Positions 2,775-21,211 of a stretch of DNA of 22,576 nt are shown here, one piece after another (the first letter of the stretch is position 1; the number at the start of each line of letters is the position of its first letter). This DNA is from Promethearchaeota archaeon (lineage in GTDB: Archaea; Asgardarchaeota; Lokiarchaeia; Sigyniarchaeales; SOKP01). The position numbers and the translations under genes are program-made. Below the pieces are notes generated by a model. The model made no database searches. It was not told the DNA's origin and saw only the letters and a list, made by a program, of their open reading frames with translations. Location: contig JBHLME010000071.1 of the NCBI GenBank assembly GCA_048938445.1, forward strand, positions 1 to 22,576. The letters are read 5' to 3'.

Positions 2775-3793
2775 CTAATTCCTATTTTTTTCTTCTTTTT
2801 ACCATTTTTCTCTATGAAATCTTGGTACCACTTAACTGTCGTTTCTAGAGCTTCTCTAATTGGCGTTATTTTATAACCTATTTTTTCATTTGCTTTTTTA
2901 GAAGAAAAAGCCCAATTATATTTCATACCGACAATCATTGCTGGAGTGATATAAGGAATTCTTTTTGAACTTAGTCTTGCTTTTAATTTACAAGCTCGAG
3001 CGAATAATACGCCCCCCCACATAGGAAAATGACGAGGTTTTTTTGTTCTAGCTATTTCTGAAGCGAGGTTTAAATAGTCGTTAATAGTAATATTTTCTCC
3101 CCCAAGAAAGAAACCTTCTCCAATTAGATCATCACGATCTATCACGCTTATCATACCATTAATGACATCATCAATGTAAGCCATACAAAAGAGAGATTCT
3201 CCTTTACCAGGTAGTCCTAAGAATTGTCCTGCAACAATATCAAACATCATTTCTCCATAAATATTGAAATCTCCAGGTCCAAAGATAAATCCCGGATAAA
3301 AAATTATCGCTTTCAATCCTTGATTCATGTAATCCTTCACAACTTCCCTTCCAAGGAATTTAGTTCTTTCATAATCATTTTGGAAAAAATTTACATGTTG
3401 GTACGTTTCATCGCATACTTGCCCATCAGGATTAGGTCCAAGAGCTCCAAAAGAACTTGCATAGAAAAATAAAATGTCTTTATCGAGAGCTACTTTTGCA
3501 GCGTTTTCTGTTCCATCAACATTGACCATGTCGTATTTTTTTTTGTCTTTAGCCCAAATTTTTACATATCCCGCAAGATGATATATGATATCAACATTTT
3601 CTGCTGCCTCGTAAATGCTGTCGATATCAGTAATATCTCCAGTTATATATTTAATATTTTTAAGATCTTCAAATGGAGAAATATCACTAGATTCTCTTAC
3701 CAAAAGTTTCAAATTATGACCTAAAGAAGATAACTTCTTGACTAAAGGTATGCCTAAAAATCCAGTGCTTCCTGTAACTAAAATATTCTTCAT
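2759..3793 (-). CDS. Extended short-chain dehydrogenase/reductase (NAD-dependent epimerase/dehydratase family, DFR/HpnA-like)
   Basis: The N-terminus 'ILVTGSTGFLG' is a Rossmann TGxxGxxG motif. There is a catalytic 'YERTK' (YxxxK) with an upstream 'YASS' serine. 'PGFIFGPGD' and 'FLGGENITINDY' are typical of extended SDRs. An AGGTGGA RBS lies 5 nt upstream of the ATG. Confidence 0.9.
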   Translation of the reverse strand: MKNILVTGSTGFLGIPLVKKLSSLGHNLKLLVRESSDISPFEDLKNIKYITGDITDIDSIYEAAENVDIIYHLAGYVKIWAKDKKKYDMVNVDGTENAAKVALDKDILFFYASSFGALGPNPDGQVCDETYQHVNFFQNDYERTKFLGREVVKDYMNQGLKAIIFYPGFIFGPGDFNIYGEMMFDIVAGQFLGLPGKGESLFCMAYIDDVINGMISVIDRDDLIGEGFFLGGENITINDYLNLASEIARTKKPRHFPMWGGVLFARACKLKARLSSKRIPYITPAMIVGMKYNWAFSSKKANEKIGYKITPIREALETTVKWYQDFIEKNGKKKKKIGIRCSLQ

Positions 3794-3978
3794 GTTTCCA
3801 CCTATTTTTTTGGATAAAAAGGTAAATCATATTGATAATTATACAATAATTATTAATTACACTTAAATACACTTAAATGCATGATTTTTTATTTGAATTT
3901 TTTGCTTGATGGACGTAAGATAATTATAATAAATTGACTTTTAATATGATAATAATTAATTTATACCCTTAAACTGAA

Positions 3979-4542
3979 ATGAATGATTTCAATTATAACA
4001 AATTTCATTCTCAATTAGCTCTACCATATTTAGAGACAAAACATAAATGTATTGAAGAAATTTTTCAATTACTTGAACTCGAATTTGGATTAAAAAAGAA
4101 ATCAACCCAAAAATTTATAGATTTGGGTTCTGGTGATGGTAGAATTGTGATTTATTCTGCAATAAATTATGGTATTAAATCAATTGGGATAGAAATTAAC
4201 AATAATTTAATAAGAGAAGCAAAAGAGCATGTGAAAATTTTAAAAAAGAATAAATCTTTTAAGAGGAGGTTTTTAAATAAAATAAAATTCATAGAAGCAG
4301 ATTTTTTCATATTTGACTTGAAGGAATATGATTATATTTATATTTATTCCTTACCATCAATGCATTCTTATCTTAGACACGTTTTTAAAACCATAAAACC
4401 AAAAGTGATAATAATTTCTCATAAATATGAATTAGCTCAATTGAAATCCCTCATAAAATTTGAATCAAAATTGATTCATAAAAGAGGGAATGAGGAGTTA
4501 TCTACTTATTTTTACTCAAGAAATGATTCAGAGTCAATGTAA
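3979..4542 (+). CDS. Class I (seven-beta-strand) SAM-dependent methyltransferase, small stand-alone
   Basis: Motif I is 'FIDLGSGDGRIVIYSA'. The post-I acidic residue is in 'IGIEIN'. 'FIEADFF' and 'YIYIYSLPSM' fit motifs II and III. 187 aa, TAA stop. Confidence 0.85.
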   Translation: MNDFNYNKFHSQLALPYLETKHKCIEEIFQLLELEFGLKKKSTQKFIDLGSGDGRIVIYSAINYGIKSIGIEINNNLIREAKEHVKILKKNKSFKRRFLNKIKFIEADFFIFDLKEYDYIYIYSLPSMHSYLRHVFKTIKPKVIIISHKYELAQLKSLIKFESKLIHKRGNEELSTYFYSRNDSESM

Positions 4543-4657
4543 TATTATATTTTTATATAATTTCAATATAATAATAAATATTAATTTGATTCGAATTTTT
4601 TAAAGAATTATAAGTCTTTCCAACTAATAATAGTATAAGAATATAACAGTTTTAATC

Positions 4658-5077
4658 GTGAAAATAATGAACTGGAAAATAGATGAAGATAAACTTTGGT
4701 TCAAAAAATGGTGGCCTAAAGATTGTCCAAAAAACCTTCAATTTAATGAAATCACTTGTGGTGATTTTTTTGAAGAACAAAGATCTAAATATCATGACGA
4801 GATTTTTATGGTGTTTCTCGAAACAGAGATGACTTATGATGAGGCAGGAGATTATATTGACTCTTTAGCAACCGCACTTCATCGTTTAGGATTAAGAAAA
4901 GGAGATGTGTTAGCTCTTCTCATACCAAATTGTTTCCAATATGTTATCACCTTCTATGCTTGCATGAAAATTGGAGTAATTGTAGTTCCAATCAATCCAA
5001 ACTTTAAGAAAATCCAGATTCTAAGAATTCTTAAATTAACGCAACCTACAACTATTGTTACGGTGAATTATCTATAG
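4658..5077 (+). CDS. AMP-dependent acyl-CoA synthetase/ligase, N-terminal fragment ending at an in-frame TAG
   Basis: 'MTYDEAGDYIDSLATALHRLGLRKGDVLALLIPNCFQYVITFYACMKIGVIVVPINPNF' is the canonical N-terminal region of ANL-superfamily ligases. The fragment stops at TAG 5075-5077, in the same frame as the next ORF. The probable start is the ATG at 4667; 4658 is a GTG. Confidence 0.8.
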   Translation: MKIMNWKIDEDKLWFKKWWPKDCPKNLQFNEITCGDFFEEQRSKYHDEIFMVFLETEMTYDEAGDYIDSLATALHRLGLRKGDVLALLIPNCFQYVITFYACMKIGVIVVPINPNFKKIQILRILKLTQPTTIVTVNYL

Positions 5078-5122
5078 AAGGATATATTAAGAACTATCAC
5101 ACCACAAATAAAAGTAGATTTT

Positions 5123-6436
5123 GTGTTGCATACTCATATTTTAGATTTTGTAAAAAATAAGAGGGCAATACAACGAGAATATGGGAAAGTTCCTTATTCA
5201 AGAGTAGATTTTCCGAATGCTATTAGATTATTAGATCTTTGCAATTCATCCATAAAAGTACCAAACATAAATATTTCACCAACACAAGATATAGCGGTTT
5301 ATATCACTACTGCAGGTTCAACGGGAGAGCCAAAAATATGTGAATTGACACATTTTAATTTAATTGCTAATGCGAAACAATGTAGGTCTTGGTTAGGAGG
5401 TGAAGACCCCAGAATTGGTAATCTTGGTATTATTCCTCTATTTCATCCATTTGGCATGACTTGTATAATGAATACAACAATTGCATTGGGTGGTTTGATG
5501 TTGCTTTTTCCCACACAACCATCGAATGAACAATTAATCATAGAAATCCACAATGCCTATGCTCCAAAAGGTTTCTTGTTTTTTGGTCCCGAAATATTAT
5601 TCAAAAAGATAAATAAAGCCATCTCTTCAAATGATTACATTGATATATGGGAAAAAATTAAATATGGAATTGCAACCGCATCCCCTCTTCACACATCCGT
5701 TCAAAAAGAGTTTTTGAATAAATTGGGAGGAAAACTCGTTGAAAGTTATGGTTTAACTGAAGCAAGTCCAGTTATTAGTATTGGAAATTTAATTAATGAA
5801 ACTCGTGAAAATTGCTTAGGTCTACCTCTTCCAGGAACAGAATGGGGTATTTATGATCCGATTAATTTTGATATTGGACCCATAGATAAATATGGAAAAG
5901 ATAATATAGGAGAAATCTGTGTGAGTGGGCCACAAGTAATGATTGGATATTTAGAAAGCCTTAAAGCGACTCAAGATGCTCTTAAGAAATTTAACAATAA
6001 AATTTGGCTGCGAACGGGTGATCTTGGATATATGAATGAAGATGGCACGATCATTTTAACTGAACGTAAACAAGAAGAGAAGAAAAAAGTCAAAATAGGA
6101 GCTAGTTATCTTGTAGATGTGGAAAAATTTGTTTTACAGCATAAAAATGTAATTGATACTGCTGTTTTAGGAATACCTCCTGTAAATGATGAACCAGGAA
6201 AAATTACTAAAATATGGGTTAGTCTAAAGTCTGAGCAAATAAGTAATACAGCCGCTAAGAAATTTCATAATTGGTTAGAAAAAAATATGCCGGAATATAA
6301 ATTAGATACAGATATTGAATTTATTAAACCCCCATCCATATCAAAAGTTAAACCTGAAACTAAATCCGTTCTTGGTAAAATTCAAAAAGGTTCAGCAAAA
6401 GTGGGAAAACTTCCAGAGGCTAAAATACAAAAATAA
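5123..6436 (+). CDS. AMP-dependent acyl-CoA synthetase/ligase, C-terminal fragment (same frame as 4658..5077)
   Basis: 'TTAGSTGEPKI' is the A3 P-loop, 'ESYGLTEASP' is A5, 'LRTGDLGYMNEDG' is A7, and 'SVLGKIQK' is the A10 Lys. Both 4658 and 5123 are in frame 2, and the 45 nt between TAG and 5123 are open and read KDILRTITPQIKVDF. Confidence 0.85.
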   Translation: MLHTHILDFVKNKRAIQREYGKVPYSRVDFPNAIRLLDLCNSSIKVPNINISPTQDIAVYITTAGSTGEPKICELTHFNLIANAKQCRSWLGGEDPRIGNLGIIPLFHPFGMTCIMNTTIALGGLMLLFPTQPSNEQLIIEIHNAYAPKGFLFFGPEILFKKINKAISSNDYIDIWEKIKYGIATASPLHTSVQKEFLNKLGGKLVESYGLTEASPVISIGNLINETRENCLGLPLPGTEWGIYDPINFDIGPIDKYGKDNIGEICVSGPQVMIGYLESLKATQDALKKFNNKIWLRTGDLGYMNEDGTIILTERKQEEKKKVKIGASYLVDVEKFVLQHKNVIDTAVLGIPPVNDEPGKITKIWVSLKSEQISNTAAKKFHNWLEKNMPEYKLDTDIEFIKPPSISKVKPETKSVLGKIQKGSAKVGKLPEAKIQK

Positions 6437-9539: not shown

Positions 9540-9720
9540 ATAGCAAGGATATGATTTAAATTGGTATGATGTGCATGATACATCGTTTTTGTCATCACTT
9601 TGTCATCACAAGGTCATGTCATTCAGATGATTTCGTTCTTTTCCATATAATGTCTTGATAAATAAAAATTCTAATTGAAATAATTTAATCAAAACCATTT
9701 CAAACAACGTGGATGCATCA
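9540..9720 (-). ncRNA. Candidate omega-RNA (reRNA) scaffold / transposon right end of the TnpB element; boundaries not determined
   Basis: The position is the expected one. In IS200/IS605 TnpB systems the guide RNA scaffold overlaps the 3' end of tnpB and the downstream right end. The 201-nt non-coding stretch after the stop contains a tandem 11-nt repeat (GTGATGACAAA x2 on the tnpB strand, 9588-9609) and a small hairpin (9568-9584). No fold or covariance model could be computed. Confidence 0.25.
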
Positions 9721-11188
9721 CGGCATCCTCTATCCCATTTTCCGAAATGGCTTCTGGGAGTGCTTTTTTCATTATATTATAAGCAGCATTCACATCAGCA
9801 TTAATTACATGTCCCTTGGCAGTATAAAATAATCCTTTTACTCTTTTACCCTTGTATGTTGAATGCCAACAGATCTCTTCTCCATCTAAAAAACTACATT
9901 GGGATGTATAATTTTCTTCCTCAAGAATCACCTTTATACCGATGAGCTCTGCTTTATATTTCACTTTATTTATTAAACTCAAAAATGGAATAGACACAAA
10001 ATTTTGATTATTTCGCTTTCCCATATTTGAATTTTGCTTCCAACCAATATTATATCCAATAACAATCGTGCCAATATTATTGTGAATACAATGCTGAATG
10101 ACATTTTTGGATAATATATGAAATATATTATTTAATTTATTGTAGCGAATCAAGGATAACTTCATTAGTCGTCTTGTCCAATGTTTATATTTCTGCTTGT
10201 CTTTAGCGGATACTAATTTGCTCCGTCTTTTATTAAAATATTGGTTTATTGACTTCACAACACCACCCTTGATTATGATCGGTCTTGAACCGATATTATC
10301 TACCATGGTTATGATGTTTCGAACGCCCAAATCCATACTTTTAACTCTATCAGGATCTAATTCAAAATATTCTTTCTCCTTTTTATATACTATTCCTATG
10401 ATATATACTCCTCCTTGAGGTACTATTTCCACGAGGCTAAATTTTCCTCTGAAACGTGTTTTTATTGGTGGCAACCATCTCGGAGATCTTGGATTACGTG
10501 TATGACCTGGAAAAACCAAATAGCCATCACTTATTTTTGCTTGTTGATTGGTAAAATAAGCTGTAATCTCGCCATTTTTCTTTTTATAACTAGGAATACT
10601 TGGTTTATTAGAGTACTTCTTCTTGAATTCTTTAGGAGGCAATTGTTTTTTACTTTCATAATATTCTATTGTACTCTTACAATAACTCTCCCAATTAGTC
10701 ACTAATTTCATTAATACTTGTTGAGCTGATTGGGCAGGCATTTCCATATATTCTGGAGATAATTTCATCAATTTTTCCAATCTAGTATATGAAATGCGTA
10801 ACTTAGAATTAAAAAACCAACTCCAATCACTTTTTTCAGGTTTTTTTTCAAGCCTTTTATCTATTTTTTTGAGATACTTCTCTGAAATTCGGCAAACTTT
10901 ATCAAACTCCCGTGGGGATGAAATTAGATAATTTGTAACTTTTTTTAACCATTCTTCTACTAGTGCATGAGACTCACGAATCAAAAAGAAATAATGTCGT
11001 AGAACATAGTTTGCTTTATTATACAAGTTTTTCGATTTATAGCATATTTTTGAAAAATCTGGCGATGTTTTTACTTGTATTCGCTCTACTAAATGCATTA
11101 TTTCTATAGTATCCTGAACATCGTTTGAATGTATGGAACTTATAATCGTCATATCTTTCGTCTTATTAAATTTTAAATATTTAAACAA
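9689..11188 (-). CDS. tnpB: TnpB / IS200-IS605 OrfB-family RNA-guided endonuclease (RuvC-like), zinc-finger-less variant
   Basis: RuvC-I is 'SMDLGVRNIITM' (Asp codon 10331-10333). 'KYKAELIGIKVILEEENYTSQCSF' is the ..YKAE..G..V....YTSQ.C block. RuvC-III is 'INADVNAAYNIMKKA' (Asp codon 9794-9796). The track start at 11188 is a TTG. The ATG at 11152 (MTIISSIH...) sits about 29 nt downstream of a minus-strand TTTAAATA box and is the more likely start. Confidence 0.9.
   Translation of the reverse strand: MFKYLKFNKTKDMTIISSIHSNDVQDTIEIMHLVERIQVKTSPDFSKICYKSKNLYNKANYVLRHYFFLIRESHALVEEWLKKVTNYLISSPREFDKVCRISEKYLKKIDKRLEKKPEKSDWSWFFNSKLRISYTRLEKLMKLSPEYMEMPAQSAQQVLMKLVTNWESYCKSTIEYYESKKQLPPKEFKKKYSNKPSIPSYKKKNGEITAYFTNQQAKISDGYLVFPGHTRNPRSPRWLPPIKTRFRGKFSLVEIVPQGGVYIIGIVYKKEKEYFELDPDRVKSMDLGVRNIITMVDNIGSRPIIIKGGVVKSINQYFNKRRSKLVSAKDKQKYKHWTRRLMKLSLIRYNKLNNIFHILSKNVIQHCIHNNIGTIVIGYNIGWKQNSNMGKRNNQNFVSIPFLSLINKVKYKAELIGIKVILEEENYTSQCSFLDGEEICWHSTYKGKRVKGLFYTAKGHVINADVNAAYNIMKKALPEAISENGIEDAVMHPRCLKWF
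11178..11185 (-). promoter_or_regulatory. TATA-box-like element upstream of tnpB
   Basis: The minus strand reads TTTAAATA, matching the archaeal TATA consensus TTTAWATA. It is centred about 29 nt upstream of the ATG at 11152, which fits a leaderless mRNA. AT-rich background makes chance matches common. Confidence 0.3.
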
Positions 11189-11688: not shown

Positions 11689-12474
11689 ATGATAAGGGAC
11701 ATTATTATTATAAAAGATGGTTTACCATTATATTCCACGCATTTTAAGAACACAGATAATACCATCTCCCAAGTTTTTACTCAAAAAAATGATATAATAA
11801 TGATGACAGGCTTTTTATCTGCGTTAAATTCATTTTCAGAAGAGTTTAACAATTTTGGTCCAATAAAGGAGTTACGATTATTGAATAACGATTTAAAACT
11901 ATCATTCGTGAAAGATAATACCATTCCTAACTTAATTTATCTTGCAACTTATGATGACAGTTCAAAAGGTGTAAATGTACAAAGAACCTTGAGAAAAATT
12001 TCACGAGATTTTGTAGACATATATGGCGTCGATCAAATTGAGAATTGGAGCGGAAAAACCGATTATTTTAATGGTATGAATGATGTAGTAGATAGATATG
12101 TTAATGAAGAAATGAGAGAAAACGAGAGAGGTTTTAAAGAGAAAGTGGTTGATTTATTTAAGAATGTTGAAGAAAAACTCAATGAGAACCTTAAAGATAA
12201 TAAAAATGAGATTAAAATAAGTTCAAAAGAAGAAAACATTGAAAATCAGAAATATTTAGATTATTATGCTTTTGTTCCATTTTTTAAAACTAGTCGAAAG
12301 ATAAATCCAAGATTTTATATAACAGGAGAAATGTCCCATAAAATTTTTAGACAAATTAATGGAGAAAAATCAATAGATCAAATCGCAAGAGAATTAGAAT
12401 TAAAACAAGAACAAGTCTATAATGTATGTAAGAATTTAGTAAAAATTGGGTTTATTTCTTTGAATATGAATTAA
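11689..12474 (+). CDS. Longin/roadblock-like N-terminal domain protein with central coiled coil and C-terminal winged-helix (HTH) domain
   Basis: A TGAGGT RBS lies 4 nt before the ATG. The N-terminus 'MIRDIIIIKDGLPLYSTHF...IIMMTGFLSALNSFSEEF...IKELRLLNNDLKLSFVKDNTIPNLIYLATYDD...VQRTLRKISRDFVDIYG' has the beta-beta-alpha-beta-beta-beta-alpha pattern of longin/SNARE-like folds. The middle is E/K-rich. The C-terminus 'SIDQIARELELKQEQVYNVCKNLVKIGFISL' is HTH-like. Confidence 0.7.
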   Translation: MIRDIIIIKDGLPLYSTHFKNTDNTISQVFTQKNDIIMMTGFLSALNSFSEEFNNFGPIKELRLLNNDLKLSFVKDNTIPNLIYLATYDDSSKGVNVQRTLRKISRDFVDIYGVDQIENWSGKTDYFNGMNDVVDRYVNEEMRENERGFKEKVVDLFKNVEEKLNENLKDNKNEIKISSKEENIENQKYLDYYAFVPFFKTSRKINPRFYITGEMSHKIFRQINGEKSIDQIARELELKQEQVYNVCKNLVKIGFISLNMN

Positions 12475-12891: not shown

Positions 12892-13113
12892 TTATTTCTT
12901 CTCCTGAAATTTAAATGAGCCAGTAACAATATTTTCTTCTCGTTCTCCAGATTTAGATACTTTTTCAAGAGAAATGGTAATAGATTCACCATGATTTAAA
13001 GCATAATTAACAAAATTTATGAATCCCAAGTGTTTTGAAGGCGCCATATTAAATTTGATACACATTTCTTTTTCATTTTTTATCTTTGTTTTCAATGTCA
13101 GTCTTAATTTCAT
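12892..13113 (-). CDS. Small basic protein, paralogue B (73 aa)
   Basis: 'MKLRLTLKTKIKNEKEMCIKFNMAPSKHLGFINFVNYALNHGESITISLEKVSKSGEREENIVTGSFKFQEKK' aligns without gaps to paralogue A. Conservation between the two copies supports that both are real genes. Confidence 0.65.
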   Translation of the reverse strand: MKLRLTLKTKIKNEKEMCIKFNMAPSKHLGFINFVNYALNHGESITISLEKVSKSGEREENIVTGSFKFQEKK

Positions 13114-17346: not shown

Positions 17347-18102
17347 ATGATAATGACGGATGTTGAATATAAAGGAAAGAGGTATAATTTTTCATGGTAT
17401 GCAATTACTTTTTTTTTTATATCGTGTCCACTCATTGCTTTTTTTATAATCGAAATCTTAGAATTATTATGGATCTATTCTTATCCCATTGTAATTTATC
17501 CTGTAAATGAAATATTAAAATTCATCACGGGTGATTCATTTTCATATTATCCAGAGTTAGTAGCTTCTACTTACATCCTTGAAATTCCAGGCAAACCTGG
17601 TGGTATATTTTTCGTATCTGAATGCATTGGAATTCAAGGATATGCCATATATGCAGGGATCAGTTTCATGACCCCTCATAATAGACATTCCAAACAAAAC
17701 AGGAATATATATTTGAGAAAAGTGAGCACATTCCTTCTTACAAGTATTCTGCTTTATTTAGCAAATGTTTTAAGATCAGTAATTACTTTGCTTCTTTATT
17801 ACAATGGGACATTTGAGTTTAGTCCAATGCATGAAATTATCGGATATATAACGACTTTCTTTGCCGTATTTGTATTTTATTTTGTGAGTTATTTCTGGCT
17901 TCCAGAATTTTCTTTATTCGTTATATGGATGAAAGATGACATAAAAATGAGAATTTTAGGTAGGTTAAAGAATAAATATAAAGAGAAAGTCAAGATTGCT
18001 GATCAAGAGACCAAAGAATTAAAAAGAAGATATCTATTATTGTTCTGGATAATTTTTGCTATTATATTTTCCGTAATAATGATATATATTATCTTTTTTT
18101 AG
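17347..18102 (+). CDS. Archaeosortase/exosortase-family-like polytopic membrane protein (putative transpeptidase)
   Basis: Three residues occur in the family order inside or next to TM helices. Cys93 is in 'IFFVSECIGIQGYAIYAGISF' (17623-17625). Arg143 is in 'LLYLANVLRSVITLLLYY' (17773-17775). His162 is in 'SPMHEIIGYITTFFAVFVFYF' (17830-17832). This resembles the V..aCSGi / N..Ri / H...G pattern of exosortase/archaeosortase proteins. Confidence 0.6.
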   Translation: MIMTDVEYKGKRYNFSWYAITFFFISCPLIAFFIIEILELLWIYSYPIVIYPVNEILKFITGDSFSYYPELVASTYILEIPGKPGGIFFVSECIGIQGYAIYAGISFMTPHNRHSKQNRNIYLRKVSTFLLTSILLYLANVLRSVITLLLYYNGTFEFSPMHEIIGYITTFFAVFVFYFVSYFWLPEFSLFVIWMKDDIKMRILGRLKNKYKEKVKIADQETKELKRRYLLLFWIIFAIIFSVIMIYIIFF

Positions 18103-18203: not shown

Positions 18204-18998
18204 ATGTCTTCATCCAAATTATTTCCTTATAAAATGAAAAAAGGACAATGGACTAAAACAGATTCTTTAACTGATAGTGATATTTCGGTTATAATTGATA
18301 TAAATTCAGAAATATTCTGGTTTTGGGAGGGACCACAAAGTACTGCAAGAGACAGATACAATGCAAGGCAGATATTAGGGCAATTGAGAGAAAAATATAT
18401 CTCTTATAAATTTAAAAGAATAAATAAAGAAGCCTCTGAATATGTCAGAGATGAATTAGAAGCACTGCAAATATATGCCTTAGCGAAAAAAAAGTCTGAT
18501 AAGAGAAATCAATTAAAAAATCTAGCAAATATAATTCATTTTATTAGTTTAATGAACAGTTTTTTCAATATTATTATTATAATTCTGTTAATTGGAGTAC
18601 TCGTCCAATCTCAGTCAATTTTTCCTTATATTTTTTTCAATCAAATCAATTTTAATTTCACTCTTGAAATATGTTCTCTAATTTTAATATTATCATTAAT
18701 AATCTTAATTCTATCTGCGATTTATATGGGGATATCAAGAAATAGATTTTTATTGGTAATTTCTATTATTGGATGTTGTTTTAATTTCATTTCCTTATTC
18801 ATGTTAAGAATTTGGGATGAATTGCTAATTGTTATATCAAGTGGTCAACATTATTTAATTCAAATTGATGCAATATTTTTTTTCATATTTAGCATTGATA
18901 TTTTTCTAATCCTAAGTATTTCTTGTTGTCTTATTGTAGGGATTATGGGTTTTATGAATGTAAAATATTTTATTAAAAGATTTGAAAAAGAAATATAA
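18204..18998 (+). CDS. Membrane protein with N-terminal cytoplasmic gelsolin-like domain and 4-5 C-terminal TM helices
   Basis: Residues 25-63, 'SDISVIIDINSEIFWFWEGPQSTARDRYNARQILGQLRE', follow the gelsolin-repeat core pattern. The basic linker 'KKKSDKRNQLK' leads into hydrophobic helices (IIIIILLIGVLV, ICSLILILSLIILILSAIYMGI, FLLVISIIGCCFNFISLFML, IFFFIFSIDIFLILSISCCLIVGIMGF). Confidence 0.75.
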   Translation: MSSSKLFPYKMKKGQWTKTDSLTDSDISVIIDINSEIFWFWEGPQSTARDRYNARQILGQLREKYISYKFKRINKEASEYVRDELEALQIYALAKKKSDKRNQLKNLANIIHFISLMNSFFNIIIIILLIGVLVQSQSIFPYIFFNQINFNFTLEICSLILILSLIILILSAIYMGISRNRFLLVISIIGCCFNFISLFMLRIWDELLIVISSGQHYLIQIDAIFFFIFSIDIFLILSISCCLIVGIMGFMNVKYFIKRFEKEI

Positions 18999-19626
18999 AG
19001 GGATAATTATGCCCTCAAAACTTCGAGTTCGATATATTTTCCGACCTCTTGTTAAGGTAATTGCTCATAGTTTAAGTAAGGTAGGCGTAACTCCAAATAT
19101 TGCTACAAGTATAATGCTTTTATTTTCAATTTTTAGTTTATTTTCATTAGTATTTCTCTCAAATTTCTTACTTTTTTCCATTTTAGTATTTACAACGGGT
19201 ATTTTTGATGGAGTTGATGGCGAAATAGCACGTTTAACCAATAAATCCACAAAAAGAGGAGCATTTTTTGATTCAACAATGGATAGAATATCAGAATTTA
19301 TAATTTTTATGGCATTACTTCTATTTTTTTGGAATGAATTTCTATGGATAATTGATATGAAATTAATTATTTTCATTTCTTTTTTAGCATCAATCATGAT
19401 TAGTTATACAAGAGCAAGAGCAGAAAATTTTTGTAAAGATGATTTTGATATTGGTTTGATGGCACGATCAGAGAGACTTTTTTACTTAGTTGTTATTAGT
19501 TTTATATCATTTTTTTATAATTACTTTAAATTATTCCTTTTCATTTTCATGTGGTTAGTAACGTTAACAGCATTGTTTAGATTTATCAAGTTTAAGAAAT
19601 ATATAAAAAAAAAGGAGATATTATAA
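18982..19626 (+). CDS. CDP-alcohol phosphatidyltransferase family protein (archaeal phospholipid head-group synthase, PssA/AIP-synthase-like)
   Basis: There is an exact D-G-x2-A-R-x8-G-x3-D-x3-D motif, 'DGEIARLTNKSTKRGAFFDSTMD', at 19216-19284. The protein is multi-TM. The probable start is the ATG at 19009 (MPSKLRVRY...), 10 nt after the upstream stop. The track start at 18982 is a TTG. Confidence 0.9.
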   Translation: MKKKYKGIIMPSKLRVRYIFRPLVKVIAHSLSKVGVTPNIATSIMLLFSIFSLFSLVFLSNFLLFSILVFTTGIFDGVDGEIARLTNKSTKRGAFFDSTMDRISEFIIFMALLLFFWNEFLWIIDMKLIIFISFLASIMISYTRARAENFCKDDFDIGLMARSERLFYLVVISFISFFYNYFKLFLFIFMWLVTLTALFRFIKFKKYIKKKEIL

Positions 19627-19744: not shown

Positions 19745-21211
19745 TTATCTTGTCTTAGCTCGAAGTCTTATTGTTCTCACTAATGAAATAACTATAACAA
19801 AAATACCCGCAATAATAAGAATTATGGGTAAGTACTTTAAACCTTGCAAATTATTTATTAAAGCAAGCAGATCTTCAAATGGATTGCCTGGAGAATCATC
19901 TGGAGGAGTATCTGGAGGGATATCTGATGGTTCTCCGAAGGTATGTATTATTTCTTTAATAGTTACTCCAGATGATCCGTTAATTTTTACATTAATATAA
20001 TATAAATTTCCGTCATTTAAGCTATAATTCCAATCTCCTTGCCATAATGGACTATCCCCATCCACTTTTAACATTGGTTTCCAATTAGTAACTAGAATAC
20101 GGGAAGCGTCATATGCGCACCATTCTACAGAATTGAGTCCAAGTGGATCCCATACAAGTGCTCTTATTTTAGTATCATTAAGATTTAATCCATCACTATA
20201 GAATGCAGTTGTCGGTGGAGATGTGATAACTCCCTGAGGCCATGTATTTAAGTATTCAACTGAAGTTGAAAAAGAATTATTGTCCATAGCAATAATTCTG
20301 TAGGCATGTTTAATGTCGAAATCTTCTGTTTCAATTTCAAAAAAATTATTCCCAAGTCGATGTTGAATAATATTTACCCGAGTATGTCCAGAGATATAAC
20401 ACGTAACATTATAATCGTTGTTTAATGTCACAAAATCTCGTCCACTAGTAGTGGTTTCAGAAATGATAGCATAATTATAAGGAGCATTTTCTCTTAAATT
20501 TACATGATGTCCGAAAGTAAAAATTCCATCATAATCTTTATACTCTTCCAATTTGGCTTCATACCAATCTAATTGATCTCTATATAAATGACCATAATAA
20601 TTAATTTCATAATTTATTAAATCAAATTGAATATAAGGTTCATTTTTTGTAGTATCTAAACATATAAATGCGTAATCTCCGAAAGAAAACGATTTTATGA
20701 ATGAATAATTTGTATCTCCAATTTCACTACCTAACATTGAATAGTCCAAATAATAAGTTTTATTTGGAATATTTGATACATCGTGTTCACCAATGAGATC
20801 AATATATACTGATGAGTTCAAGTTATTTGAAGCAAGCACGTTGCTATAATTCAACCAATGTTCAGTATCATGGCTAAAATCAGGATAAACACCACCGTGT
20901 ACTAAATCTCCAGTACTTATTACAAAAAGAGGATCGATTTCTTTATATGTTTCATTGAAAAAGGTATTTAAATTGATTCCTGATTGAGGATTATTGTAGA
21001 GTAAATCTGTTAATTGGATGAACCAGAAAATTTCTTGATCAGATTCATTAATATATCCCTGATATGATGGTTTTAATTTTGGGATTTCTGACATAACTTG
21101 TTGTTTTTCTATTGGAATGAAATCTATTATTGTAAAAAGAGGAATATATAAACTTAAGAGAATGGAAATTAGCATAACAAAAGAAAATAGATGTAACTTC
21201 AGTTTCATCAA
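19745..21211 (-). CDS. Extracellular, C-terminally anchored calcineurin-like metallophosphoesterase-fold protein with substituted metal ligands
   Basis: An N-terminal TM/signal is followed by the MPE motif series 'FWFIQLTDLLY', 'ISTGDLVHGG', 'IGEHDV', 'FGHHVN' and 'ISGHTRVN'. There are many N-x-S/T sequons. The Pro-rich stalk 'PPDTPPDDSPGNP' leads into the TM 'LPIILIIAGIFVIVISLV' followed by 'RTIRLRAKTR'. The probable start is the ATG at 21208, with GAGGT 8 nt upstream. Confidence 0.7.
   Translation of the reverse strand: MMKLKLHLFSFVMLISILLSLYIPLFTIIDFIPIEKQQVMSEIPKLKPSYQGYINESDQEIFWFIQLTDLLYNNPQSGINLNTFFNETYKEIDPLFVISTGDLVHGGVYPDFSHDTEHWLNYSNVLASNNLNSSVYIDLIGEHDVSNIPNKTYYLDYSMLGSEIGDTNYSFIKSFSFGDYAFICLDTTKNEPYIQFDLINYEINYYGHLYRDQLDWYEAKLEEYKDYDGIFTFGHHVNLRENAPYNYAIISETTTSGRDFVTLNNDYNVTCYISGHTRVNIIQHRLGNNFFEIETEDFDIKHAYRIIAMDNNSFSTSVEYLNTWPQGVITSPPTTAFYSDGLNLNDTKIRALVWDPLGLNSVEWCAYDASRILVTNWKPMLKVDGDSPLWQGDWNYSLNDGNLYYINVKINGSSGVTIKEIIHTFGEPSDIPPDTPPDDSPGNPFEDLLALINNLQGLKYLPIILIIAGIFVIVISLVRTIRLRAKTR

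Follow-up and report, generated by a model that had tools for sequence, protein, structure and literature searches.

A divergent gelsolin-homology domain joined to a four-helix membrane domain, encoded beside a putative inositol-phospholipid synthase in a Promethearchaeota genome

Main features of the gelsolin-TM protein

A stretch of 22,576 nucleotides (nt) from a Promethearchaeota archaeon (assembly GCA_048938445.1, contig JBHLME010000071.1, positions 1 to 22,576; the whole stretch is referred to below as the window) was found to encode a membrane-anchored gelsolin-like protein. The gene is present in the list of open reading frames (ORFs) of the window at 18204..18998 on the plus strand and specifies 264 amino acids (aa); it is named here the gelsolin-transmembrane (gelsolin-TM) gene. 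On the basis of family profiles and of the predicted fold, the N-terminal ~78 residues of its product are a divergent gelsolin-homology domain. No second gelsolin repeat is present, and the single domain is followed by four transmembrane (TM) helices. The protein lies outside the described architectures of Asgard gelsolins and represents a kind of protein for which we found no earlier description; searches of an open-access library of papers yielded no Asgard gelsolin with TM helices or another membrane anchor, although the supplementary tables of large surveys may mention one. With regard to function, we lean towards a cytoplasmic gelsolin module which is held at the membrane and would tether, cap or nucleate Lokiactin, forming a direct link between actin and membrane.

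The NCBI record for the gene is “hypothetical protein ACFFBP_01680” from a Promethearchaeota (Asgard) metagenome-assembled genome (MAG). The NCBI protein (P0001) is 254 aa in length and begins at Met11 (18234 rather than 18204). Seven further homologues, 33–65% identical over their full length, keep residues 1–10, including F7, Y9 and K10. As these ten residues are conserved and also form the first β-strand of the structural model described below, the start at 18204 is better than that at Met11. On the opposite strand, the region 18204..18998 is free of ORFs of ≥60 aa. The G+C content of the gene is 25%, with that of the window being 30%. Residues 25–63 (SDISVIIDINSEIFWFWEGPQSTARDRYNARQILGQLRE), in which a first-pass annotation of the window had seen a likeness to gelsolin, were found at 18276–18392 exactly as quoted there.

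The N-terminal gelsolin-homology domain

A full-length AlphaFold2 (AF2) model was obtained with a mean predicted local distance difference test (pLDDT) score of 84.3, the gelsolin-homology part having values of 85–90. The model contains strands at residues 6–12, 15–18, 27–32 and 37–42, a long helix at 48–64, a strand at 69–72 and a further helix from residue 79. This succession is that of a gelsolin domain, in which a mixed β-sheet packs against one long helix and a strand and a second helix come after it. A structure search had been proposed in the first-pass annotation as a check on the gelsolin assignment. When the AF2 model was compared with the PDB by Foldseek, the top 50 matches were gelsolin domains only, all with a probability of 1.00. 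The first match was 7c2f_B, from the Thorarchaeota ProGel/actin structure (E = 1.8e-4, TM-score of 0.68 on the target, root mean square deviation of 3.1 Å, 81 columns).

Sequence comparison pointed to the same superfamily once relatives were included. A phmmer search of the single sequence against the PDB gave nothing significant, the best match being Thorarchaeota 2DGel3 (E = 1.9). The Pfam gathering score for PF00626 (21 bits) was not reached by the window protein, and the protein as a whole could be assigned to none of the families in Pfam and NCBIfam. When the first 106 residues of eight homologues were made into a profile, villin (9.9e-5) and Thorarchaeota ProGel (5e-3) were matched in the PDB. 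With a larger profile of 50 members, in which the N-terminal domain of the window protein was combined with those of 49 membrane-bearing relatives, the match to villin reached 1.3e-17, with all six repeats matched (the first only marginally). ProGel was matched at 6.3e-9 in one stretch (profile positions 16–74, residues 22–80 of 94), gelsolin at 3e-8 and Loki 2DGel at 3.6e-5, with adseverin, CapG and severin also being found; every PDB match at E < 0.01 belonged to the gelsolin superfamily. Twelve of the 50 TM-bearing N-terminal domains matched Pfam Gelsolin weakly (E ≤ 0.1), the best of them at 3.1e-5.

It might be supposed that this resemblance is due to chance or composition and that the N-terminal region is an unrelated small α/β domain. 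The genome is AT-rich (30% G+C), and the single sequence reaches only E = 1.9 against the PDB and retrieves nothing from Pfam. Such an explanation is, however, extremely improbable given the profile E-values down to 1.3e-17, the restriction of all matches at E < 0.01 to one superfamily, the agreement of the independent AF2 prediction and Foldseek ranking, and the Pfam Gelsolin matches of the 12 relatives. Furthermore, a search of 1.84 billion proteins by profile retrieved, at 1.4e-6, a protein of L. ossiferum listed in UniRef as “Gelsolin-like domain-containing protein”. The gelsolin-like nature of the N-terminal domain, as put forward in the first-pass annotation, is therefore borne out both by the family profiles against the PDB and by the AF2/Foldseek comparison.

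Residues conserved family-wide in the domain are Y9, W16, D26, D32, E42, G43, A54, L58 and Y65. Position 32 is D in 41/50 members, position 41 is W in 33/50 and otherwise Y or F, and G43 is present in 49/50. A DWG/WxG signature has been used by Akıl and co-workers to recognize gelsolin domains (PMC7444086; PMC9433394), and the gelsolin signature motif is found here as D32, W41 and G43. The first-pass annotation had also aligned residues 25–63 position for position with domain 2 of human gelsolin (G2). The principal pairings stand, as a hidden Markov model alignment to G2 sets W41, G43, S46 and A54 against the W, G, S and A of that domain, but a strict position-for-position correspondence is impossible between 39 and 36 residues.

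An ADF-H/cofilin identity was also considered for the domain and was rejected: the WxG motif is present, no cofilin or ADF-H domain appears in the Foldseek top 50 and there is no ADF-H match in Pfam. In cofilin-type domains a WP motif replaces DWG and extra helices are present (PMC7444086).

The membrane domain and predicted topology

The fusion of the gelsolin-like domain to a polytopic membrane domain, also proposed in the first-pass annotation, was upheld, with the AF2 model giving four TM helices where 4–5 had been claimed. These are TM1 (residues 107–134), TM2 (147–177), TM3 (181–207) and TM4 (221–254). The two outer loops (135–146 and 208–220) are modeled as short β-hairpins with pLDDT values of ~80–87. 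The linker that precedes TM1 is polybasic in its juxtamembrane part (ALAKKKSDKRNQLKN), with residues 90–106 having a net charge of +5. At the other end of the protein, residues 253–264 contain four Lys/Arg, and residues 255–264 have pLDDT values below 50.

No hydrophobic segment is found at the N-terminus of the window protein. Averaged over the 50 members, the number of Lys and Arg residues is 5.7 in the linker, 0.5 in loop 1, 1.6 in loop 2 (which has five residues), 0.6 in loop 3 and 6.8 in the C-terminal tail. As these counts are high in the linker, loop 2 and the tail and low in loops 1 and 3, an N-in, C-in topology is predicted, in which the gelsolin-like domain and the C-terminal tail would be cytoplasmic and the two hairpin loops would be outside. 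The cytoplasmic placement of the N-terminal domain suggested earlier thus gains support from positive-inside counts across the family.

No position in the TM region reaches 70% conservation across the family. In the absence of conserved polar or catalytic TM residues, an anchoring role of the membrane domain is the most likely one, more so than activity as an enzyme or a channel. The idea that this domain acts enzymatically or as a transporter was rejected on the same ground, no TM residue being conserved family-wide. Pfam matches to DUF2207_C, NrfD, Orbi_NS3 and SUR7 were far under their cutoffs and look compositional.

The predicted outer hairpins bear on another explanation, namely that the protein is a transmembrane sensor or adhesion protein in which the hairpins receive a signal and the gelsolin domain is the output, or that it has some other unforeseen membrane function. 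Both outer loops are modeled as ordered β-hairpins, and the sequence LRIWD at the outer end of TM3 is kept in the close subgroup of the window protein. We nevertheless consider a function of this type quite unlikely, since the loops are only ~12–15 residues in length and are not conserved across the family, and since no known sensor domain was detected in Pfam or NCBIfam.

Distribution of the family

A search of 1.84 billion representative proteins with the profile of eight sequences returned 59 at E ≤ 1e-3, each standing for one cluster at 50% identity. Forty three of these have the N-terminal domain followed by TM segments (206–395 aa) and four more look like fragments of gelsolin-TM proteins. 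A further eight are short, soluble, ProGel-like proteins, including the L. ossiferum protein with the UniRef name given above, and four are other or multi-repeat proteins. None of the eukaryote-like multi-repeat matches in this search carries TM segments. The fusion thus recurs in at least 43 clusters at 50% identity. All named members are listed as “hypothetical protein” and come from MAGs labeled Promethearchaeota, Lokiarchaeota or “archaeon”. A homologue search with the 50-member profile of the N-terminal domain returned only three short proteins, and a scan of contigs with narrow peptide patterns only three loci.

Four subfamilies could be distinguished by N-terminal sequence: A (MSSxLFPYK…, the type of the window protein), B (MExxxYKFxDxKWxET…), C (MFxYVFxxxKWIETEKLYPHD…) and D (MxxxxFVFxxGKW…). 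A profile of the TM domain of subfamily A detects members of subfamilies B and C at 14–30 bits, with the best of 714 shuffled or reversed decoys scoring 10.5 bits; subfamily D was not linked by this profile. The detection of B and C members above all decoys indicates that the fusion is old and was not repeatedly reinvented.

The adjacent putative phospholipid synthase gene and the conserved neighborhood

The gene that follows the gelsolin-TM gene encodes a CDP-alcohol phosphatidyltransferase resembling archaetidylinositol-phosphate synthase (AIPS-like). The gap between the two genes is 10 nt, as the first-pass annotation had reported, with the ATG of the AIPS-like gene at 19009, and the two are probably co-transcribed. 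The AIPS-like protein scores 52.3 bits against PF01066 (cutoff 22), and its best family is NF040950 (E = 2e-40; 138.7 bits, which is below the cutoff of 180). It carries the motif DGVDGEIAR-x8-G-x3-D-x3-D, an instance of DGxDGxxAR-x8-G-x3-D-x3-D. The coordinates of these genes, of the parts of the gelsolin-TM gene and of the genes upstream are given in Table 1.

Table 1. Coordinates of the gelsolin-TM gene, its parts and its neighbors in the window
Feature	Position	Strand	Basis
Small conserved Asgard protein, 104 aa, basic C-terminal helix	12529..12843	-	Homologues, AF2
Tandem paralogue of the small protein, 73 aa, without basic tail	12892..13113	-	64% identical to the 104-aa copy
PKD-domain surface protein, 1293 aa	13400..17281	+	PKD domains
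ArtH-like archaeosortase	17347..18102	+	TIGR04178, NF041736
Gelsolin-TM gene	18204..18998 (stop included)	+	ORF; eight homologues, 33–100% identical, full length
Gelsolin-homology domain, residues 1–78	18204..18437	+	AF2 fold, Foldseek, family profile
Charged linker helix, residues 79–106, unbroken into TM1	18438..18521	+	AF2 helix 79–134
Four-helix membrane domain	18522..18965	+	AF2 model, hydropathy
Basic C-terminal tail, residues 255–264, predicted cytoplasmic	18966..18995	+	Lys/Arg counts
AIPS-like CDP-alcohol phosphatidyltransferase	19009..19626	+	PF01066, motif, NF040950

The neighborhood was surveyed in 15 loci beyond the window, which bear 16 identifiers (L001–L016), L008 and L009 having the same protein and neighbors. 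In 10/10 loci of subfamilies A (the window, L001, L002, L003, L012 and L014) and B (L004, L006, L011 and L016), an AIPS-like gene directly neighbors the gelsolin-TM gene. Three arrangements are seen: the AIPS-like gene lies either downstream in the same orientation or upstream in one or the other orientation, and the outer flanking genes differ among these loci. The link to a phospholipid synthase which the first-pass annotation had drawn from a single locus is therefore conserved beyond the window genome.

A second conserved neighbor is a small protein that is the divergently transcribed direct neighbor of the gelsolin-TM gene in subfamilies A, B and D (adjacent in L002, L003, L004, L006, L008, L011, L012, L013 and L016). 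Its family (~101 aa) has at least 177 homologues that are ~60% identical across Asgard classes (Loki, Thor, Hod and Hermod by MAG name). No sequence match was found in Pfam, NCBIfam or the PDB. The AF2 model (pLDDT 89) has a ββ-α-ββ arrangement with a long basic C-terminal helix, and Foldseek returned no match to it, the best hit having E = 0.28.

The order of genes in the window is a helix-turn-helix gene at 11689 (+), the small protein, its paralogue, the PKD protein, the archaeosortase, the gelsolin-TM gene and the AIPS-like gene. The archaeosortase gene lies 101 nt upstream of the gelsolin-TM gene. NCBIfam matches agree with the earlier assignment of this upstream gene as archaeosortase-like: TIGR04178 is matched at 33 bits (above its cutoff of 23) and NF041736 (ArtH) at 119.5 bits (below its cutoff of 200). 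The PKD protein ends in a sorting-signal-like C-terminus (…PATPGL followed by a hydrophobic helix and KRK), and together with the adjacent ArtH-like archaeosortase it looks like an enzyme-substrate pair.

In the position of the gelsolin-TM gene between an archaeosortase-like gene and a phospholipid synthase, the first-pass annotation had seen a hint of coupling between cell-surface assembly and the cytoskeleton. Such a coupling, through archaeosortase-mediated anchoring of surface proteins, would agree with the ArtH-like gene 101 nt upstream and the PKD protein with its sorting-signal-like tail. The synteny contradicts it, the ArtH-like gene being adjacent in the window only. No ArtH homologue was found in the related loci searched (L001–L016). 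In L014, which encodes a 62%-identical protein, a PKD protein is directly upstream across a gap of ~200 nt with no sortase gene, and in L002, L003 and L012 the small conserved protein is found upstream instead of the PKD and sortase genes. The PKD and sortase cassette, which looks like an insertion separating the gelsolin-TM gene from the small protein, occupies this place in the window genome only and stands outside the conserved module. A coupling of this kind is accordingly very improbable, and conservation extends to the lipid-synthase half of the “sortase/lipid cluster” named earlier but not to its sortase half.

Proposed function

Homology of the N-terminal domain to gelsolins makes an Asgard actin the most likely ligand. 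Asgard gelsolins regulate actin in vitro (PMC7444086; PMC9433394), and the soluble ones occupy the gelsolin/cofilin site of actin and sequester, cap, nucleate, sever or bundle according to what is attached to the domain (PMC7444086; PMC9433394). In the favored model, the single cytoplasmic gelsolin-homology domain would be joined by a charged helix straight into the four-helix anchor, so that a gelsolin-type actin-binding surface would be held at the inner face of the membrane. At the membrane, the anchored domain could then act on Lokiactin, as monomers or at filament ends, by tethering, capping or nucleation. Inositol phospholipids may either regulate the protein or mark its site of action. 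On the evidence of the AIPS-like gene, which is adjacent in two of the four subfamilies, the gelsolin-TM protein probably acts together with inositol phospholipids.

By analogy with other actin regulators, the protein may be regulated by lipids, and control by inositol lipids is made plausible by the following observations. Eukaryotic gelsolin is released from actin by phosphatidylinositol 4,5-bisphosphate. Asgard profilin has been reported to respond to phosphatidylinositol phosphate (PIP) lipids, and L. ossiferum expresses enzymes of PIP headgroups (bioRxiv 10.1101/2025.11.30.690169).

Several points weigh against a membrane-held actin-binding module. The single sequence has no Pfam Gelsolin match at E ≤ 1 (full length) or E ≤ 10 (N-terminal domain), and the alignment behind the AF2 model was shallow (eight sequences). 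The topology is a prediction from charge counts. The polybasic juxtamembrane stretch is confined to the close subgroup of the window protein, and a polybasic PIP-binding linker was for this reason rejected as a family-wide feature. In subfamilies C (L005, L007, L010 and L015) and D (L008/L009 and L013) no AIPS-like neighbor is present within the sequence available.

The residues of the putative binding sites belong here as well. Position 56, which we take to be the equivalent of Ile103 in domain 1 of human gelsolin (G1; ungapped register from G43), is polar in the family (E/N/Q/K). The Ile103-equivalent position is Arg in ProGel according to the alignment of the profile with the PDB. D26 and position 50 presumably correspond to Asp66 and Glu97 of the type-II calcium site of G1 (also in an ungapped alignment); on this assumption the Asp66 equivalent is kept in 48/50 members, and the Glu97 equivalent, an acidic residue of the helix, is not conserved, being D in the window protein and N/D/I/T/K/A across the family. 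ProGel, the closest solved relative, binds rabbit actin weakly (Kd ~337 uM; PMC7444086). Lastly, actin binding by the N-terminal domain is inferred from homology.

In the main rival explanation, a gelsolin fold was recruited for a job not involving actin. Along with the small basic-tailed protein, the gelsolin-TM protein would then assist, regulate or localize an inositol-phospholipid pathway, for instance by serving the synthase as a scaffold or as one of its subunits. The strongest signal of the genomic context is indeed related to lipids, the AIPS-like gene being adjacent in all ten loci of two subfamilies despite rearrangements, and the 10-nt gap suggests co-transcription with the synthase. 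In addition, the residues expected for high-affinity binding of actin and calcium are not conserved (in the same ungapped G1 register), and gelsolin-like folds with non-actin roles exist, as in Sec23/Sec24. However, subfamilies C and D keep the architecture without a synthase neighbor, and the TM domain has no conserved polar residues hinting at a partner or catalytic site. The profile is moreover specific to actin-binding gelsolin repeats, and the Foldseek top 50 consists of gelsolin domains only, many of them from actin complexes. We therefore regard a purely lipid-related role as unlikely, and prefer the direct actin-membrane link.

A broader proposal can be made only tentatively. The membrane gelsolin, the inositol-phospholipid synthase and the small basic-tailed protein could form an old, dedicated Asgard module that fixes actin to the membrane at sites of inositol-lipid synthesis; we consider this conceivable but rather doubtful. 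If it were true, phosphoinositide-controlled actin-membrane coupling would have a forerunner among prokaryotes, and the module would offer a handle on protrusions shaped by Lokiactin.

Comparison with known systems

The closest relative of known structure is Thorarchaeota ProGel (7c2f; PMC7444086), which was both the best Foldseek match and the best single-domain profile match (6.3e-9). Like the window protein it has a single gelsolin-homology domain of ~80–90 residues with the D/W/G signature, and the window family may also resemble one-domain Asgard gelsolins in conserving no complete calcium site. ProGel is, however, a free soluble protein of 94 residues with ~14% identity, whereas the domain in the window protein continues into a four-helix membrane domain.

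The proteins 1DGelX and 2DGel (PMC7444086; PMC9433394), with GelX/2DGel in L. ossiferum (bioRxiv 10.1101/2025.11.30.690169), come from the same phylum and likewise combine a gelsolin-homology domain with a C-terminal extension which alters function. Their extensions are soluble (the coiled-coil X, a second gelsolin domain, or a linker with a zinc-binding domain) and have no membrane helices, unlike that of the window protein, and the architecture of the latter appears to leave no room for the calcium sites and WH2-like motif of 2DGel. 1DGelX, which shows an endoplasmic reticulum-like concentration in human cells, was considered as a candidate for the same protein and was rejected, as its X domain is predicted to form a soluble coiled coil and 1DGelX itself was soluble on purification. 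The earlier statement that characterized Asgard gelsolins are soluble is correct for ProGel, 1DGelX and 2DGel (PMC7444086; PMC9433394).

Among eukaryotic proteins of PF00626 (gelsolin, villin, adseverin and CapG), the repeats are homologous to the N-terminal domain, and the family profile matches all six repeats of villin and of gelsolin, the first only marginally. The way in which phosphoinositides regulate eukaryotic gelsolin at the membrane may be a functional counterpart of the pairing with a conserved inositol-lipid synthase neighbor. Eukaryotic gelsolins differ in having 3–6 repeats, and to our knowledge the proteins of this family are soluble or peripheral and never integral to the membrane.

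In its proposed mode of working, the protein can be compared with membrane proteins that tie cytoskeletal filaments to the membrane, as in RodZ-MreB and in anchors of the FtsA/SepF/ZipA type. There too, a cytoplasmic domain fixes a filament of the actin or tubulin family to the inner face of the membrane. These anchors have no homology to the window protein. They work through helix-turn-helix, amphipathic-helix or other domains, and the filaments bound are those of MreB or FtsZ, not of a eukaryote-like actin.

The gelsolin-TM family is thus a concrete and testable candidate for the attachment of Lokiactin to the membrane in Asgard archaea, an attachment that is needed for protrusions, shape change and crawling. 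Crawling of Asgard archaea was reported in 2025 (bioRxiv 10.1101/2025.11.30.690169). Those actin regulators that have been described to date are soluble, and the authors of the L. ossiferum co-immunoprecipitation experiments state that membrane proteins were under-sampled. Should the pairing with an inositol-lipid synthase be functional, lipid-regulated coupling of actin to the membrane would predate eukaryotes. Even without actin binding, the family would be the first case in which a polytopic membrane protein has a gelsolin fold for its cytoplasmic head.

Other features of the window and related loci

Just downstream of the AIPS-like gene is a metallophosphoesterase gene (19745..21211, minus strand), the product of which has a hydrophobic segment at the N-terminus and a TM segment with a basic tail at the C-terminus. 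A metallophosphoesterase gene is also present in L011 of subfamily B (3171..4976), two genes downstream of the gelsolin-TM gene. The two proteins belong to the same Pfam family only, with no similarity detected by tblastn.

A gene for a TnpB-family RNA-guided endonuclease (NF040570, E = 4.7e-44; 9689..11188, minus strand), a mobile-element remnant, lies ~2.3 kb upstream of the small-protein genes. An AMP-binding (acyl-CoA-synthetase-like) gene at 4658..6436 on the plus strand is interrupted by a single in-frame TAG at 5075–5077. The reading frame is the same before and after the TAG, and the two halves match successive segments of PF00501. The gene could be a pseudogene, the assembly could be in error at this point, or the stop could be recoded, for example for pyrrolysine.

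In two loci that belong to different subfamilies (L011, 6408..7022; L013, 1..640), genes for small GTPases of the Arf/Rag family occur within a few kb of the gelsolin-TM gene, which is consistent with an Asgard origin.

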